From: Nanobdellota archaeon
GTDB taxonomy: Archaea; Nanobdellota; Nanobdellia; Woesearchaeales; WJKV01
Assembly: GCA_023133595.1 (NCBI GenBank)
Contig: JAGLWF010000003.1
Span: 44,369 to 108,368, forward strand
DNA: 64,000 nt
Reading direction: 5' to 3'
Shown piece by piece: positions 1,171-57,799 of the stretch. The position numbers were made by a program, and so were the translations under genes. The notes below the pieces were generated by a model. It saw only the letters and a list, made by a program, of their open reading frames with translations. It was not told the origin of the DNA and ran no database searches. The number at the start of each line of letters is the position of its first letter. Within the stretch, counting starts at the first letter, position 1.

Positions 1171-3180
1171 TCAGAGCTTTTGGATGAAACCATGTTTTGG
1201 CTCGAAAAGGTCGCCAGACCTTTTTAATCTCTCAATAGCTTCTTCAACTTCAGAAGCAGGTATCCCTTTTTCTCCTGCAATTTTAACAATATCATCAATA
1301 GGAATGGTTTTTCCGATCTTATTTTCTAATTCATTGATTATTTCTCTGACTCCGGCGATTTTTCCTCTCTGGCTTGCGCTAATTCCAGAGGTAATCCTGT
1401 CTATGTCAATCTTTCCTGTTTCTTTGTCAGTCGCAATCTCTGCAAGACAGAACTGAACCAAATCAATGGCTCTCTTTGCATCTTCCCTGTCAACTGTACT
1501 GGATAATCTTATACGAGCAGAAGCTTCTGCCATCCGGATGATACCTTCCAACTGCCGCGCTGAAATAGGGACAGACTTCATGCCCCCTTCTTCTGTGCCC
1601 GAACTTCGCATCTTGACATAATATTCCTGGATCTCTTCAATTGCTTTGTCAGTAAGTTTTGGTTGGCATGTTTGCTTTGCATAAGCAACATATTTTCTAA
1701 TTATCTCTGTTGAGATCGGGCTTTCATGCAGAGAAGAAGCATCTTGGTGCAGTTTAAGAATAAAATATGACATCTTTTTGTCTTTATCTTTATCAGGGAG
1801 ATCCTTTATCGGAAATATTAGATCGAACCTGTTGATCAAGGAAGCTGGCAGATTAATCTGCTCACTGATCGCGATATAGGGATCAAAACGCCCGAACTTA
1901 GGATTTGCAGCTGCAAGGACCGTTGTTTCACATCTTAATGTCGCTTGAATGTTTGCTTTGCTTATGCTGATCTGCTGCTGTTCAAGAGCTTCGTGCATTG
2001 CGTCACGATCCTCTTTATTCATCTTATCTAACTCGTCAATCATACAATATCCTTTATGTGCTAGAACCAGAGCACCACCTTCAAGAACCCAACCATTTGT
2101 AAACTCATCTCTCAAGACAGAAGCTGTAAGTCCTGCACCAGAAACACCTTTTCCACTCACAAATCGGGATTTAGGGGCTACAAAAGAGACCCTTTTAATT
2201 AATTGAGATTTTCCAGATCCAGGATCCCCAATCAATAAAATATGTGTATCTCCTCTTGTTATGACACCGTCAGGCCGTACTTTTCGAACTCCGCCGAACA
2301 TCTGCAGAACTAATGCAGCCTTAACTTTTTCATGACCATAGATAGAAGGCGCGATTGCCAGCTGGAGTTTTTCGTAGACATGAGGATCTAAAGCCAAATC
2401 TTTGATTGCTTTTAATTCTTCGTCTTCTATTGACAGCTCAAGAAAATCATCTTCCATTGGTTCGATCAAATTTCCAGAAAGAACCAATTCAAAACGTACA
2501 GATTGTGATCCGCTTTTCTGCATGATCGGAATCTCTTTGACAATACCAAAGACGCAAACGCGCGTTCCAGGATTTGTCCGTTTCTCTGTGAATGGGGAAG
2601 TCATATCATCTGTCAGATAAACATCGATACGCTTTGGCTGAGCACCACCGAGCGCTTCTGGGCTTTCCTCTAGTACGATTCTCTGCGCATCCATGAGATT
2701 TTTTTCTATTAGTTTGAACTTTCCTTTTCTTCCGCAGCCGCACTTGCTAGGCTGACGAAAGGAAAGATCATCCTGAATAATGTTGATGATGTTTCCGCAG
2801 CTTGGACATTCGAATTTTGCATTGACAACCTGCGGACGCACCCCTGATTTTATCTTAACAATGCCTACAACCTTGATAAATTTGCCAATATGCTCGCTCC
2901 TGATCTCCCCTATTGGAATTCCTGCACTCTCTGGCAAGCTGAAGAACCGTGATTTGATCTTCCTAGGAACATCAAACTTAGAAATGGCGAGTTCGCAGGC
3001 CTTGATAGTGTCTTCTGGCGTTGTGAGCAGGGTTTCTGCTAAGTCTACATTGAACTTAGATAGTTCAGAAAAATCAATTTTCAAGCTATTGTTCTTCGAT
3101 CGTGCGACTTCTAAAACTTCTGCTTTCAAGTTGCTGTCGATAAAACGATGGAACAATTCTATCTGTTCACTTACGTCCAT
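1171..3180 (-). CDS. mcm: Minichromosome maintenance (MCM) replicative helicase
   Basis: Walker A (LLIGDPGSGKSQL), Walker B (CMIDELDKM), N-terminal C4 zinc motif (CPSCGN...CGCG), arginine-finger region and C-terminal wH. 669 aa, no intein. Confidence 0.92.
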   Translation of the reverse strand: MDVSEQIELFHRFIDSNLKAEVLEVARSKNNSLKIDFSELSKFNVDLAETLLTTPEDTIKACELAISKFDVPRKIKSRFFSLPESAGIPIGEIRSEHIGKFIKVVGIVKIKSGVRPQVVNAKFECPSCGNIINIIQDDLSFRQPSKCGCGRKGKFKLIEKNLMDAQRIVLEESPEALGGAQPKRIDVYLTDDMTSPFTEKRTNPGTRVCVFGIVKEIPIMQKSGSQSVRFELVLSGNLIEPMEDDFLELSIEDEELKAIKDLALDPHVYEKLQLAIAPSIYGHEKVKAALVLQMFGGVRKVRPDGVITRGDTHILLIGDPGSGKSQLIKRVSFVAPKSRFVSGKGVSGAGLTASVLRDEFTNGWVLEGGALVLAHKGYCMIDELDKMNKEDRDAMHEALEQQQISISKANIQATLRCETTVLAAANPKFGRFDPYIAISEQINLPASLINRFDLIFPIKDLPDKDKDKKMSYFILKLHQDASSLHESPISTEIIRKYVAYAKQTCQPKLTDKAIEEIQEYYVKMRSSGTEEGGMKSVPISARQLEGIIRMAEASARIRLSSTVDREDAKRAIDLVQFCLAEIATDKETGKIDIDRITSGISASQRGKIAGVREIINELENKIGKTIPIDDIVKIAGEKGIPASEVEEAIERLKRSGDLFEPKHGFIQKL

Positions 3181-33977: not shown

Positions 33978-34994
33978 ATGATTCAGATGCCTTATGACCA
34001 GATTATAAAAAAATTAGTTGCAAATACTTCGCTTTCTGAAAAAGAACTTAATGATAAGATCGAAGCAAAGATGAAAGAGCTTTCTGGCCTTATAAGCAAG
34101 GAAGGTGCTGCGCATATCATTGCGAACGAGCTTGGTGTGAAACTCTTCCAGGTGTCTGCAGGATTGCTGAAGATCAAGGATATCCACCCTGGAATGCGCG
34201 CAGTAGAGACAGTGGGAAAAGTGACAAATGTCTTTGAACCAAGAGAGTTTGACACTGGGGCCCGGAAAGGAAAGGTTGGAAATTTTATCATATCTGATGA
34301 GAGCGGCAGTATAAGAGTTACATTATGGAATGAGATGGTTGATAAATTGCAGAAACTTGAACCTGGAAAGACAATAGTGAAGATAAAAGGCGGATATGTG
34401 CGGCAGAATAATATTGGAAATAAGGAATTGCACCTTAATGACAAGTCTGCCTTGACTTTGAATCCACCAGGCATTGAGATAACTGAGCGAAGATCAGAGA
34501 GAAAAAAGATAATCGATCTTTCTGAAGGGGAGGATTCAGTTGAACTTTTAGGACATATTGTTGATATATTCAGTCCTGCATTTTTTGAAGTCTGCCCCGT
34601 ATGCAGCCGCAGGCTAAAGCTAGGGGAGAAGGGGTTCGAGTGCCAGCAGCACGAGAAAGTGGAACCTGCACTTTCTTATGTTGTCAATGTCCTGCTGGAC
34701 GATGGCACAGGAACCATGCGCGTTGCCTGCTGGAGGAACCAAGCTGACAAATTGTTTGACAATATGCTTGATCTTAAGGATAATAATGAACTGTTTGAGC
34801 AGAAAAAAGCTGAATTGCTTGGCATAATGGTGACTGTGCGTGGAAAGGTCACTAAAAACAATCTTAATGGAAATCTGGAACTGTCTTCTTTTAATCTAGA
34901 CACCAATCCAAAGATGGAGAAAGAGGTTGAAGAGCTTCAGAAAGAAGTGGAAGAACTAGATAATCTCAAAATTGAAGAAGAAGAAATAAAATAA
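33978..34994 (+). CDS. rpa: Replication protein A (archaeal RPA/SSB) with two OB folds and a C4 zinc ribbon
   Basis: OB-fold regions GKVTNVFEPREFDTGARKGKVGNFIISDESGSIRVTLW and the zinc motif CPVCSRRLK...CQQHEK. RBS AAGGGGG lies 8 nt upstream. Confidence 0.7.
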   Translation: MIQMPYDQIIKKLVANTSLSEKELNDKIEAKMKELSGLISKEGAAHIIANELGVKLFQVSAGLLKIKDIHPGMRAVETVGKVTNVFEPREFDTGARKGKVGNFIISDESGSIRVTLWNEMVDKLQKLEPGKTIVKIKGGYVRQNNIGNKELHLNDKSALTLNPPGIEITERRSERKKIIDLSEGEDSVELLGHIVDIFSPAFFEVCPVCSRRLKLGEKGFECQQHEKVEPALSYVVNVLLDDGTGTMRVACWRNQADKLFDNMLDLKDNNELFEQKKAELLGIMVTVRGKVTKNNLNGNLELSSFNLDTNPKMEKEVEELQKEVEELDNLKIEEEEIK

Positions 34995-55045: not shown

Positions 55046-55747
55046 ATGCAACGAAACAGAGGATTAGAAATTATTTGTTTTGACATGGAAGGCACTATCT
55101 TAAGAAAAGTTACAGAGAATTTGATTAGTAAAGATATTCCACCAAGTGTGTGGGTGCGACTTGCTGAACGAGTTGGTCCTGAGGCATTGGAAGAAGAATT
55201 GGCTACTCAGGAAAAATGGTTGAGAGGGGAATTCAAATATTCGGCTTGGATGGATCAACTTGCACGCACTTATAGAAGATTTAGATTGAAAAAGCGGCTT
55301 TTTGATGAGGTTATGGATAGTGTTGGTTATCATCCAGGTGTTCAGGAAACTTTTGAAGAATTGAAAAGAAAAGGTTACACAATCGCTTTATTAACCGGCG
55401 GATTTAAAGCGCAAGCAGACAAAGTTGCCGAAGAACTGGATATAGATCATGTTGTTGCAGCGTGTGAATTTTTTTGGAACCAAGATAATGAACTTTCGCA
55501 TTGGACCCTGTTGCCATGTGATGCTGAAGGAAAATTACTCTTTATGAAAGCGATTGTTGAAGGATTAGGTTTTGCACTAGAGCAAAGCAGTTATGTTGGA
55601 GATTCAAGAAGTGATATTCCTTGTGCAAAAGAAGCAAGAGTATCAATAGCTTTTAATGGACATCCAGATTTACAAAAAGCCTGCACTTATTCTATAAACC
55701 AGCCAGAAGGAGAAGAAGATTTTAGAGAAATTCTGCAGTATTTTTGA
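55046..55747 (+). CDS. HAD-superfamily hydrolase (phosphoserine-phosphatase-like)
   Basis: Motif I ICFDMEGTI (second Asp is Glu), motif IV GDSRSDIPCA. Start taken at MQRNRG. Confidence 0.55.
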   Translation: MQRNRGLEIICFDMEGTILRKVTENLISKDIPPSVWVRLAERVGPEALEEELATQEKWLRGEFKYSAWMDQLARTYRRFRLKKRLFDEVMDSVGYHPGVQETFEELKRKGYTIALLTGGFKAQADKVAEELDIDHVVAACEFFWNQDNELSHWTLLPCDAEGKLLFMKAIVEGLGFALEQSSYVGDSRSDIPCAKEARVSIAFNGHPDLQKACTYSINQPEGEEDFREILQYF

Positions 55748-56385
55748 GAATACTTTTATATATCAAGAATATTCAATCCAATAAAATGAAGAAAGTAATC
55801 ATCTTTGATTGGGGCGGAATTTTGGCTGTGCCTAGTCGCAAAAAACATACTTTTGATATTCTTGCTGAGAAATTAGGTGTTTCTCATGATAAAGTGATGC
55901 AAGCTTTTAACAACGGATTTCAGGATTTAAGATGCGGGAGATTGAATGTCTCTCAGTTTTGGGACAATTTTCTTTTTGATTTAAGAAAAGAGTATGACAA
56001 AAAGAAGCTTACAAAGATCCTATTTGACGAAAGAAAATTAAGCAAACCTGCCTATAACTTGTTGTTGAAATTAAAAAAGAAAAACAAGATCTATATTTTT
56101 TCTAATAATATTGAAGAATGGCACAGATATTTGGTGCGAAAATTCAAAATCAATCTCAAAGGCATCCCGTTTATTGCTTCTTATCATCTCAACTGCGCGA
56201 AACCAGAATTAAAAGCGTTTAGATTATTCTTGAAAAGGATAAAGAAAAAGGCAAAAGAATGCATATTTATCGATGATAAGAAAGGCAATGTAAAAATCGC
56301 ACAAAAATTAGGCTTTGATGCCATATATTTTGAGAACGTAAGGCAGTTGAAATCTGAACTTAGAAAAAGAGATATCGAATTCTAG
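55744..56385 (+). CDS. HAD-superfamily hydrolase with a DxxGxL-type motif I
   Basis: VIIFDWGGILA, FIDDKKGN. Confidence 0.5.
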   Translation: MRILLYIKNIQSNKMKKVIIFDWGGILAVPSRKKHTFDILAEKLGVSHDKVMQAFNNGFQDLRCGRLNVSQFWDNFLFDLRKEYDKKKLTKILFDERKLSKPAYNLLLKLKKKNKIYIFSNNIEEWHRYLVRKFKINLKGIPFIASYHLNCAKPELKAFRLFLKRIKKKAKECIFIDDKKGNVKIAQKLGFDAIYFENVRQLKSELRKRDIEF

Positions 56386-56388
56386 AAA

Positions 56389-56423
56389 GCCTCTGGAGGG
56401 ATTTGCACCCTCTAATCTAAGAG
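56389..56423 (-). other. tRNA 3'-half-like fragment (T-arm + 3' acceptor strand); imperfect copy of the 3' end of the tRNA at 57508-57610; no matching 5' half found nearby
   Basis: Minus strand reads ...GAGGGTGCAAATCCCTCCAGAGGC versus the intact tRNA's ...GAGGGTGCGATTCCCTCCCAGGGC, same orientation. It overlaps the 3' end of the LAGLIDADG ORF. Confidence 0.4.
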
Positions 56424-57395
56424 TTTCGGACAAGTTTTTCTGATCCTATTTATGTGCCTTGAATTAGAAAAACCTATTGTTTTTAAAAACTTTTTTGTAT
56501 ACTTTTCCCCATTAATTTGAATAATATATCCATTTTTAGTTATTGTTGGATTTAAATCAAAAAATTGCAATGTATTATAAATTTGTCTAATCAAAGGTCT
56601 ATTTATAAGTTCAATATGGATTCTAGGGTAAGGATTGCGATAAGACGGCCTTTTATCAAAAAAGACGCAACCATCGGTATCATATATTCCTCTCAAAAGA
56701 GCAGTAATATGTTCTCGACAAGAGTTTAATATTTCTTGGGGAATTTTAACGGTATATGATTTCTTGCCTGCAGGAAATTTAAATCTTTGGGTTAATAATA
56801 TATGGAGAGTTTTAGAGTTGAGATTTATTCTTAAGGTATTATCTATCCTTTTGATGCGCGGTTTAATATTAAAATAGGTTTTTGCAATAGGAATCATGCA
56901 TTTTTCATAATATTCATAATCATATCTGGAATCTCCTGTAAATTGTATTACATAAGAAGACCCATATTTGTTAGTAAAACCGTCACCAATGAAAGCGCCA
57001 AGAAATTCACAGAGATTTTCATTTAGCTCTAGATTAACATCAAAATGATATTTACTTATTCTGTTTTTCCACGACAATTTTCTACCTATCATAAAAATCT
57101 CTTTGTGATTTTTATAAGTTGTAATGCCTCCTTTTTTACGACCCCAATTTTCATCGATAAGTTGTATTGTTTTATTGAAATAATTCTGTTTTTCTGTCGA
57201 TAGGATGTTATTTAATTTTTGGTACCTATAATAAGGAAGTGTGTACATTCCATTTTTATAAAATTCAAATCTAGATTTAGGAATGTTTGTGAAGTTTCTT
57301 AGTTCTTTCCAAAATCTAAAACCGCTTGCCTTAAGAGCTTCTTTAAAGAATGAAATTCTATCAGATTTGTTTTGAAAAATTACTCGTTTTTTCAT
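56412..57395 (-). mobile_element. Free-standing LAGLIDADG-family homing endonuclease ORF (two LAGLIDADG motifs)
   Basis: Motif 1 LCEFLGAFIGDGF, motif 2 ITALLRGIYDTDGCVFF; 327 aa. Confidence 0.65.
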
Positions 57396-57507
57396 ACAGA
57401 AAAATAAAACCTACCTATTAATAAGTTTTTGGTTTTCTGAGCTACAAGGGCATTTTTTGGAATTATTCTAATAAATTATAGAATAAATATATTTTTGAAA
57501 AAATAAA

Positions 57508-57610
57508 AGCCCTGGGAGGGAATCGCACCCTCGACCTGCAGTTTTCTGTGCAAAGCGCATACGAGATTCAGCTCAATGATCTGCTGCTCTGGCTACTAAG
57601 CTACCAGGGC
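57508..57610 (-). tRNA. tRNA gene (~103 nt incl. discriminator) with a ~30-nt insertion in the anticodon region, consistent with an archaeal BHB intron; isotype not resolved by hand
   Basis: Minus-strand RNA: GCCCUGG-UA-GCUU-AGUAGCCA-GAGC-A-GCAGA...CUGC-AGGUC-GAGGG-UGCGAUU-CCCUC-CCAGGGC-U, with a perfect 7-bp acceptor stem, D-arm and T-arm. No CCA encoded. T-rich tract downstream. Confidence 0.6.
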
Positions 57611-57799
57611 TTAAAGTTTATTCAGGATTTCTTCTTTTGACAGCTTGCTCTGGCATTCTGGGCAGATCAGGTGTTTTTTCTTGCCTTTCTTGATATAAGT
57701 ACCTAGGATCTTCTTCAGGAATGTCGTGGCAATTGTCTTTTTGCAGATTTCGCATTTCATAGCATGCATTATCTTGAAGTAGATTATAAACTTTTGCAC
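57611..57799 (-). CDS. Small CxxC...CxxC zinc-ribbon protein (62 aa) whose stop directly abuts the tRNA 5' end
   Basis: MKCEICKK...22 aa...CPECQSK; coding status uncertain. Confidence 0.3.
   Translation of the reverse strand: MQKFIIYFKIMHAMKCEICKKTIATTFLKKILGTYIKKGKKKHLICPECQSKLSKEEILNKL

Follow-up and report, generated by a model that had tools for sequence, protein, structure and literature searches.

The monomeric LAGLIDADG enzymes I-DmoI, I-Tsp061I and I-PorI are encoded by open reading frames (ORFs) within spliced bulge-helix-bulge (BHB) introns of archaeal ribosomal RNA (rRNA) genes, and the host gene stays intact. Here we describe a locus of a Nanobdellota archaeon in which a LAGLIDADG ORF lies between the two ends of a disrupted transfer RNA (tRNA) gene for threonine, beside an intact tRNA-Thr. 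The locus belongs to a 64-kb stretch of contig JAGLWF010000003.1 (assembly GCA_023133595.1), hereafter the window. We consider it probable that this is a free-standing LAGLIDADG homing endonuclease gene (HEG) cassette, made up of its own TATA-type promoter and an ORF of 327 amino acids (aa), which resides inside the disrupted tRNA-Thr gene and targets tRNA-Thr genes. The rRNA-intron enzymes share with it the fold, the double-motif active site, the archaeal host and a conserved RNA gene as target. Unlike them, the present gene is free-standing with its own predicted promoter, its product has an extra N-terminal domain of ~115 aa, and the tRNA retains its function through its partial or complete duplication instead of through splicing.

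Free-standing HEGs are known from T4-like phages and cyanophages, for example SegB in the tRNA region of T4, and mobE and F-CphI, which are cases of 'collaborative homing' (for the term and for mobE, see PMC2790892). In collaborative homing, an intron without an ORF in an adjacent gene can confer immunity and move together with the HEG. As in our locus, these genes stand beside their target gene, and in the SegB case a tRNA region benefits. However, the phage enzymes are of the GIY-YIG or HNH type, involve group I introns and leave no gutted gene with stubs, whereas here a LAGLIDADG protein is found on an archaeal chromosome together with BHB introns. The free-standing HEGs of fungal and algal mitochondria insert at a gene's end, for which they supply a substitute, and the displaced part decays in place. 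The shared principle is that insertion is tolerated since the element substitutes the displaced gene part; the mitochondrial hosts are protein-coding genes joined by in-frame fusions, whereas here the host is a tRNA gene, stubs remain at both ends and many inserts contain a whole replacement tRNA. Finally, SSV- and pNOB8-type elements that integrate at tRNA genes are likewise bordered by a direct repeat of a tRNA end. The present insert differs from them in its size of ~1 kb, in having no integrase and in the loss of the tRNA middle instead of a simple duplication of the attachment (att) site.

The closest precedent is an insertion in a population of Candidatus Caldiarchaeum subterraneum, where 1.8 kb separate an intact tRNA-Thr(GGU) from a 5' fragment of such a gene on its upstream side (Sugahara et al., 2012, PLoS One, PMC3293823). 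The insert of ~1.9 kb contains an 813-bp ORF immediately beside the tRNA-Thr on the same strand and a 545-bp repeat, the reconstituted tRNA-Thr(GGU) gained an intron at 24/25, and a sister copy adjoins tRNA-Thr(CGU), so that tRNA-Thr seemed to these authors a specific target (PMC3293823). The ORF was called a putative recombinase from a support vector machine prediction and the event was modelled as a pNOB8-type site-specific integration (PMC3293823). By its described anatomy, not by the sequence of its ORF, this insertion is strikingly like the one reported here: both have a 5' tRNA-Thr fragment, a one-ORF insert and an adjacent intact tRNA-Thr with a non-canonical intron. The Caldiarchaeum case differs in its phylum, in having no LAGLIDADG assignment and in the extra 545-bp repeat. 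A search seeded from a family member in Nitrososphaerota returned no named Caldiarchaeum protein, and a literature search on LAGLIDADG proteins with tRNA-Thr, DPANN or free-standing archaeal HEGs found no paper on the present family.

A LAGLIDADG gene between two tRNA-Thr stubs

The locus has three conspicuous parts, all on the minus strand: a tRNA gene of 103 nucleotides (nt) at 57610..57508, the double-motif LAGLIDADG ORF at 57395..56412 (stop codon TAG at 56414..56412), and a copy of the T arm and 3' acceptor strand of the tRNA at the ORF's stop codon. All three had been pointed out in a preliminary description of the window; they are real, and their positions and strand were given correctly. 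A further part, overlooked there, sits between the tRNA and the ORF. After an A+T-rich spacer of 56 nt that follows the tRNA, the sequence GCCCTTGTAGCTCAG at 57451..57437 (minus strand), which we call a', copies tRNA positions 1-15 with 13 of 15 bases identical and thereby covers the acceptor 5' strand, U8 and A9 and the start of the D arm. Matches to this 15-mer with at most two mismatches are expected by chance 0.065 times per window, counting both strands. A TATA-like run lies ~30 nt upstream of a'. Downstream of it comes a putative archaeal promoter, read from the sequence at 57430..57417 (minus strand), with AAAAAC resembling a B recognition element and the TATA-like TTATTAAT.

The 3' stub, c', spans 56429..56389 on the minus strand. 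Its core, GAGGGTGCAAATCCCTCCAGAGGC (56412..56389), differs from tRNA positions 49-72 at 5 of 24 bases and consists of a T arm (GAGGG-TGCAAAT-CCCTC) and the 3' acceptor strand CAGAGGC, followed by TTT; its first G is also the final base of the TAG stop codon. No 24-mer within five mismatches occurred in 200 block shuffles of the window, and a scan of the 64 kb for a T arm followed by an acceptor strand gave only two convincing sites, the tRNA's own and c'. Weaker homology, recognized by eye, extends ~17 nt further 5' (56429..56413) over the last codons of the ORF; this degenerate extension resembles the end of the tRNA's second intron, the 3' strand of the anticodon stem and the variable loop, and encodes the last residues of the protein. 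The view taken in the preliminary description, in which this fragment is a tRNA 3' end that was displaced, gains support, and the fragment recurs in relatives. A T-arm-like hairpin at window position 34437 (minus strand; TAAGG-TGCAATT-CCTTA) has no acceptor-like 3' strand and is probably a chance occurrence.

We read a' and c' from their sequences as opposite ends of a single former tRNA-Thr gene, in which the insert replaced the middle, approximately positions 16-37, because their acceptor strands pair with each other, because one related c' keeps an anticodon loop and because a TATA box lies ~30 nt upstream of many a' copies, where a tRNA promoter is expected. More specifically, among related loci (labelled L001 and onwards) the a'-c' acceptor pairing is 7/7 in L004 (with one G-U), L011 and L029 and 6/7 in the window, L012 and L007, and it beats the pairing of c' with the 5' strand of the intact tRNA in seven of eight loci (6/7 against 5/7 in the window). 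The c' of L010 retains the CGU anticodon loop UUUCGUA. What remains of the disrupted gene is its opening 15 nt (a') and its last ~40 nt from about position 38 (c'). The insert between the stubs is ~1.06 kb long and comprises the promoter and the endonuclease gene only, so the suggestion of a small mobile element carrying nothing but a homing endonuclease agrees with the footprint found here.

The ORF has its own ATG, TAG and TATA-like box, and the flanking stubs cannot form a tRNA, as expected of a free-standing HEG. It starts 112 nt after the tRNA, and the box ends 21 nt before the ATG (-29..-22), a spacing that would imply a leaderless mRNA. The same stub-TATA-ATG spacing recurs in L002, L032, L056, L061, L067 and L069. 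The protein matches the Pfam family PF14528 (LAGLIDADG_3; E = 2.5e-8) and carries two LAGLIDADG motifs in one polypeptide, GAFIGDGF (residues 133-140) and RGIYDTDGC (235-243). The acidic residue that closes each motif is conserved, D138 in 71 of 71 relatives and D/E241 in 71 of 72. An AlphaFold2 model built from 30 relatives (mean predicted local distance difference test score 93.7) is predicted to adopt the pseudo-symmetric alpha-beta-beta-alpha-beta-beta-alpha fold of monomeric double-motif LAGLIDADG endonucleases. Its top Foldseek matches, all monomeric homing endonucleases from archaea, are I-Tsp061I, I-DmoI and PI-PfuI (E ~1e-9 to 1e-7, target template modelling score ~0.7), with I-AniI, bI3 maturase and WhiA at lower scores. 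In a search against solved structures, a profile query matched homing endonucleases and a single-sequence query gave nothing. The extra N-terminal helical domain of ~115 aa has invariant residues of its own (R4, F17, W84/G85, G90 and R105).

The intact tRNA (positions 1-72 at 57610..57509, discriminator base at 57508) matches the Rfam family RF00005 with 46.3 bits (gathering score 29) and has 39 nt where an anticodon-loop region of 9 nt is expected. ARAGORN, one of the tools that the preliminary description had suggested for checking this tRNA, was silent on the unspliced form, calling no tRNA in the 64-kb window with or without its intron option (local run, introns of up to 1200 nt). With two introns removed, the remaining 73-nt sequence is called as tRNA-Thr(cgt) with a perfect cloverleaf, and the spliced anticodon arm reads GCAGU-CUCGUAA-ACUGC. 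The ~30 extra nt noted in the anticodon region by the preliminary description are therefore real, and they form not one intron but two: intron 1, ATCATTGAGCTGAA, of 14 nt (57580..57567, minus strand) between tRNA positions 30 and 31, and intron 2, TGCGCTTTGCACAGAA, of 16 nt (57559..57544, minus strand) at the canonical position 37/38. A single 30-nt intron was considered and rejected: at no position does it yield a 5-bp stem and a loop with U33, hence the two-intron model.

Intron 1 forms a textbook archaeal BHB with 3-nt bulges (AA|U and AG|A), a central helix of 4 bp (C25A26G27C28 with GCUG) and an outer helix of 3 bp (G22A23G24/C32U33C34). It also occurs in seven other loci, with lengths of 12-17 nt, and 98% of the cells in the eight-locus alignment are paired. 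For the central helix alone this figure is 100%, with two covarying pairs, and every slid control drops to 29-43%. The BHB of intron 2 is relaxed, with a central helix of only 2 bp and unequal bulges in a local fold, and a boundary at 36/37 would leave the same spliced product as one at 37/38. The minimum-free-energy fold of the whole tRNA is uninformative (z = -1.3).

A protein family at tRNA-Thr genes

Database searches gave 129 relatives of the protein at 35-61% identity, and a scan of species-representative genomes gave 419 encoded relatives, of which 80 loci were kept. Nearly all of the 129 come from Nanoarchaeota, Woesearchaeota, Pacearchaeota, Diapherotrites/Iainarchaeia and Micrarchaeota. 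We counted the association with tRNA genes over 81 loci with a defined ORF end, accepting a distance of at most 200 nt or an overlap. At least 67 of the 81 have a tRNA-Thr (CGU, GGU or UGU) in this range: 50 are called as tRNA-Thr by ARAGORN and at least 17 more are intron-bearing tRNAs that start with GCC and carry a Thr anticodon-loop heptamer. Among tRNAs further away in the same loci, only 3 of 41 are for threonine. ARAGORN mistyped many of the intron-bearing relatives (for example, L002 as Ser(gga) and L004 as Phe(aaa)), and these were resolved by hand. A blastn-short search for additional tRNA pieces was noisy, and only matches with E < 1e-3 were used.

Four geometries are found. In the first, to which the window belongs, tRNA-Thr(CGU) lies upstream on the same strand and a 3' stub follows the ORF; L001, L002 and L004, for example, show a zinc-ribbon ORF, an intron-bearing tRNA-Thr(CGU) (identified by eye), the LAGLIDADG ORF, a stub at the stop codon and TTTT. 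In the second, the ORF is followed on the same strand by an intact tRNA-Thr, mostly GGU, whose first 10-20 nt contain the ORF's stop codon, and a 5' stub and TATA box precede the ATG by ~55 nt. In the third, a convergent tRNA-Thr (GGU or UGU) overlaps the 3' end of the ORF in antisense and a 3' stub lies upstream of the ORF (L027, L064 and L075). In the fourth, a divergent tRNA-Thr(UGU) lies ~110 nt upstream, and in L021 a 5' stub is found at the far end of the ORF. L064, L027 and L021 have stubs as elsewhere with the ORF inverted. These geometries correspond to clades in a neighbour-joining tree of the endonuclease core, and by sequence the family appears split into lineages, each tied to one tRNA-Thr isoacceptor and one geometry. 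As many as three copies, at different isoacceptors, can occur in a single genome (L013, L080 and L083, in one metagenome-assembled genome (MAG)).

The stubs recur along with the ORF. A 3' stub at the stop codon is present in ~15 loci of the CGU clade (L001, L002, L004, L008, L010-L015, L028, L029, L058 and L093), and a 5' stub followed by a TATA box in ~18 loci. The usual order in the CGU clade is zinc-ribbon gene, a', TATA box, intact tRNA, ORF and c' (L004, L007, L008, L010, L011, L012, L023 and L029). Together these features describe what is apparently a large, undescribed, tRNA-Thr-specific LAGLIDADG family with an unusual architecture, in which a tRNA gene is gutted and a replacement is provided.

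Several further observations concern the family. In L032, L040, L054, L056, L059, L063, L066, L067, L069, L070 and L081 the ORF stops within the following intact tRNA-Thr, in many cases at a TAG formed by the universally conserved U8-A9-G10; if the two were co-transcribed, cleavage by RNase P would thus deprive the mRNA of its stop codon. Short relatives of ~210 aa form a clade (L070-L085, for example L081 2465..3112) that has no N-terminal domain and lies directly upstream of tRNAs with large or multiple introns; two of its loci, L070 and L079, have perfect direct repeats of 15-22 nt of the tRNA 5' end, 170 and 150 nt upstream of the ORF. In a Nitrososphaerota MAG, a member of 224 aa (L082 2483..3258) lies 11 nt from a convergent intron-bearing tRNA with a CUCGUAA loop, and ~45 close relatives of it (~206-230 aa) come from similar sources, which takes the family beyond DPANN. 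The database gene call of L002 (351 aa) starts 85 nt early and runs through a degenerate 5' stub and TATA box (L002 3001..3085); the start consistent with the family is the ATG at 3086.

Sites with and without the cassette

In the window the base before the intact tRNA, 57611, ends the stop codon of a zinc-ribbon ORF (57611..57769, minus strand; MKCEICKK...). The zinc-ribbon protein is conserved, with 51-53 aa, two CxxC pairs and 62-75% identity across Woesearchaeota and Nanoarchaeota, and the intact tRNA-Thr(CGU) of the window adjoins its gene in the same place as in genomes that have no cassette. We sampled ten sites with the zinc-ribbon gene and the tRNA independently, nine by looking up zinc-ribbon homologues and one, L091, by scanning metagenome contigs with the RNase-H-like neighbour, and all ten are free of the cassette. 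At L086-L090 and L096-L098 the DNA has tRNA-Thr(CGU) right behind the zinc-ribbon gene and no LAGLIDADG ORF; for the ninth site (P0132) the absence of such an ORF is read from the gene list only. Several of these sites share the order Endo_dU - ABCE1 - zinc-ribbon - tRNA ... radical SAM - MatE with the cassette-bearing L001 and L004. L091 is the closest syntenic relative found and shares with the window the ThiI-like, RNase-H-like, zinc-ribbon and first HAD genes (55-61% amino-acid identity) and tRNA-Thr(CGU). Its tRNA-Thr(CGU) has no intron, the HAD gene lies 22 nt behind it, and there is no ORF, no stub and no second HAD gene. The cassette is thus absent at ten sites and present, in the same context of zinc-ribbon gene and tRNA, in the window, L001, L002, L004 and others, the pattern expected of a mobile HEG. 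A fragment missing from relatives and an ORF kept in all of them had been named in the preliminary description as evidence that would speak against its proposal; instead, the fragment recurs and the ORF is missing at these ten comparable sites.

Some details of these sites stand on their own. The second HAD-family hydrolase gene of the window (55744..56385, plus strand), which is convergent and has its stop codon 3 nt from the end of c', is missing from L091 together with the cassette. In many genomes tRNA-Thr(CGU) begins right at the zinc-ribbon stop codon or no more than a few nt from it, an arrangement that suggests co-transcription of the two, with the 3' end of the mRNA set by tRNA processing. 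In L087, an orphan c'-like element without an ORF (2825..2852), a hairpin with a 3' acceptor strand (GGGAG-CGCACAT-CTCCC-CAAGGGC-TTTG), lies 55 nt downstream of an intact intronless tRNA-Thr(CGU) and, judged by its sequence, may be a scar left by a cassette that was lost.

By analogy with other free-standing HEGs, we propose that the enzyme would make a double-strand break in the tRNA-Thr gene of a cassette-free genome and that the break would be repaired by copying from a cassette-bearing genome, with the tRNA-derived stubs and the neighbouring DNA providing homology. An intact tRNA-Thr would be kept or supplied alongside, preserving host function, and the displaced ends of the resident gene would stay as stubs; the intact tRNA is what would let the host tolerate the insertion. 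The cutting of tRNA-Thr DNA, the position of the cut and continued homing are all presumed from the same analogy. A cycle of invasion, decay and loss is usual for such genes, and it fits the conservation of the catalytic residues, the clades tied to particular sites, the sporadic occupancy and the possible scar at L087.

Several points weigh against this proposal of a homing cassette. All sequences come from MAGs, and no near-identical genome pair differing only by the cassette was found among the loci compared. The relatives are deeply diverged and their geometry tracks phylogeny, so long vertical residence with occasional loss also fits. In the CGU clade the order found in the window, with the intact tRNA outside the stubs, is atypical and shared only by L002 (52% protein identity), and the order tRNA-a'-promoter-ORF-c' would have to be derived from the common a'-promoter-tRNA-ORF-c'. 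The a' of the window pairs with the 3' strand of the intact tRNA at 6/7 positions, equal to its pairing with c', so that the case for two ends of one gene rests mainly on the relatives. Finally, the intronless cassette-linked tRNA of L011 has the same anticodon arm as that of the cassette-free L091, which leaves self-immunity unexplained if the target lies there.

The deep divergence is also what a different account would draw on, in which the protein is a domesticated LAGLIDADG host protein, for example a regulator that binds DNA or a factor that acts on the genes or transcripts of tRNA-Thr. It would pass down by vertical descent with occasional losses, and the stubs would be old scars or regulatory sites such as an operator at a'. 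We regard this as unlikely. It would accommodate geometry classes that are clades, the conserved length and invariant N-terminal residues despite the divergence, the fixed distance between a' and the TATA box in many loci, and the presence of the non-nuclease LAGLIDADG proteins bI3 maturase and WhiA among the fold matches. However, both catalytic acidic residues are almost universal in the family, in contrast to WhiA-type derivatives. The gene is missing at all ten independent zinc-ribbon and tRNA sites, L091 included, the four orientations relative to the tRNA argue against co-transcription, and the stubs are well formed but unlike the neighbouring tRNA.

Two further origins of the repeat come into consideration. 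One, the main reading of the preliminary description, is the remnant of an integrase-type element, SSV or pNOB8 style, that duplicated a tRNA end on integration, and we consider it highly improbable. A same-orientation repeat of the tRNA 3' end does border the insert, tRNA genes are classic att sites, and the similar Caldiarchaeum insertion has been read in this way (PMC3293823). Such elements are recognized by an integrase gene and by a single tRNA-end repeat with an uninterrupted tRNA, neither of which is found here: no integrase or recombinase domain occurs in the adjoining ORFs scanned (two HAD hydrolases, the zinc ribbon and the RNase-H-like protein) or in the gene lists of related loci, and the ~1.06-kb insert, with the endonuclease gene alone, lies inside a disrupted gene of which a 5' and a 3' stub remain. 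Two stubs and a lost gene middle are not what conservative site-specific recombination produces, and the architecture recurs in dozens of genomes, always with a LAGLIDADG ORF. The other is a split or giant-intron tRNA, with a' and c' as exons around a ~1-kb ORF-bearing intron or c' as an alternative 3' half for the upstream 5' half. BHB introns with LAGLIDADG ORFs do exist in archaeal rRNA genes, c' begins near the canonical intron position 37/38 and has a perfect T arm, and a' and c' pair at 6/7 positions. Even so, this explanation appears extremely improbable. A scan of the window interval between a' and c' found no 3' strand of a D stem and no anticodon arm, so the pair is not a giant-intron tRNA and no cloverleaf can be recovered. 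As a stand-alone 3' half, c' would pair with the 5' strand of the intact tRNA at only 5/7 positions, its variable-loop and anticodon-stem part is degenerate, and an intact tRNA-Thr(CGU) stands next door. The exon reading is also implausible because most CGU-clade loci have a complete tRNA in the interval from a' to c'.

Introns and possible immunity of the linked tRNA

Of 20 cassette-linked tRNA-Thr(CGU) genes, 8 carry the intron at 30/31, against none of 9 cassette-free ones, which is a weak association (one-sided Fisher's exact test, p = 0.029, not corrected for phylogeny). The broader statement that introns mark cassette-linked tRNAs was considered and rejected, given that canonical 37/38 introns occur in both groups and at least six cassette-linked tRNAs are intronless. 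A comparison of the intronless tRNAs of the two groups gave no diagnostic substitution in the anticodon arm, where L011 and L091 are identical, and introns are accordingly not the sole device of immunity.

A bolder extension of the homing proposal, which we hold to be rather doubtful, is that the cassette brings or travels with an intron-bearing replacement tRNA-Thr, thereby spreading BHB introns and creating tRNA fragments, with the 30/31 intron interrupting the target and protecting the linked tRNA. If the replacement tRNA is read in this way, the system may be an archaeal BHB-intron counterpart of collaborative homing, which predicts a replacement tRNA whose intron lies in just the part that the gutted copy has lost. 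Were the extension true, it would provide an enzyme-driven route to archaeal tRNA intron gain, to the disruption of tRNA genes and to the origin of split tRNA pieces, and it would re-explain the tRNA-Thr case of Caldiarchaeum.

It has long been asked why so many archaeal tRNA genes are split or carry one or several interruptions, and one proposed answer is conflict with mobile elements. The locus supplies a concrete and widespread candidate agent, a LAGLIDADG family at all three tRNA-Thr isoacceptors, whose members leave 5' and 3' tRNA fragments and are often linked to tRNA-Thr genes with non-canonical introns. The family may therefore bear on the origin of archaeal tRNA introns and tRNA fragments. 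In practical terms, standard tools miss or mistype such tRNAs, and annotation of the ORFs goes no further than hypothetical or generic LAGLIDADG proteins.

Unusual introns also occur in other tRNA-Thr(CGU) genes of these sites. The cassette-free tRNA of L090 (2683..2785), uncalled by the tRNA finders run, has an intron of ~31 nt in its T loop (GTGGG-TGCAA[...]T-CCCAC), and the tRNA of the cassette-bearing L008 (142..255), which ARAGORN did not find, has a ~24-nt intron in the D arm in addition to one at 37/38.

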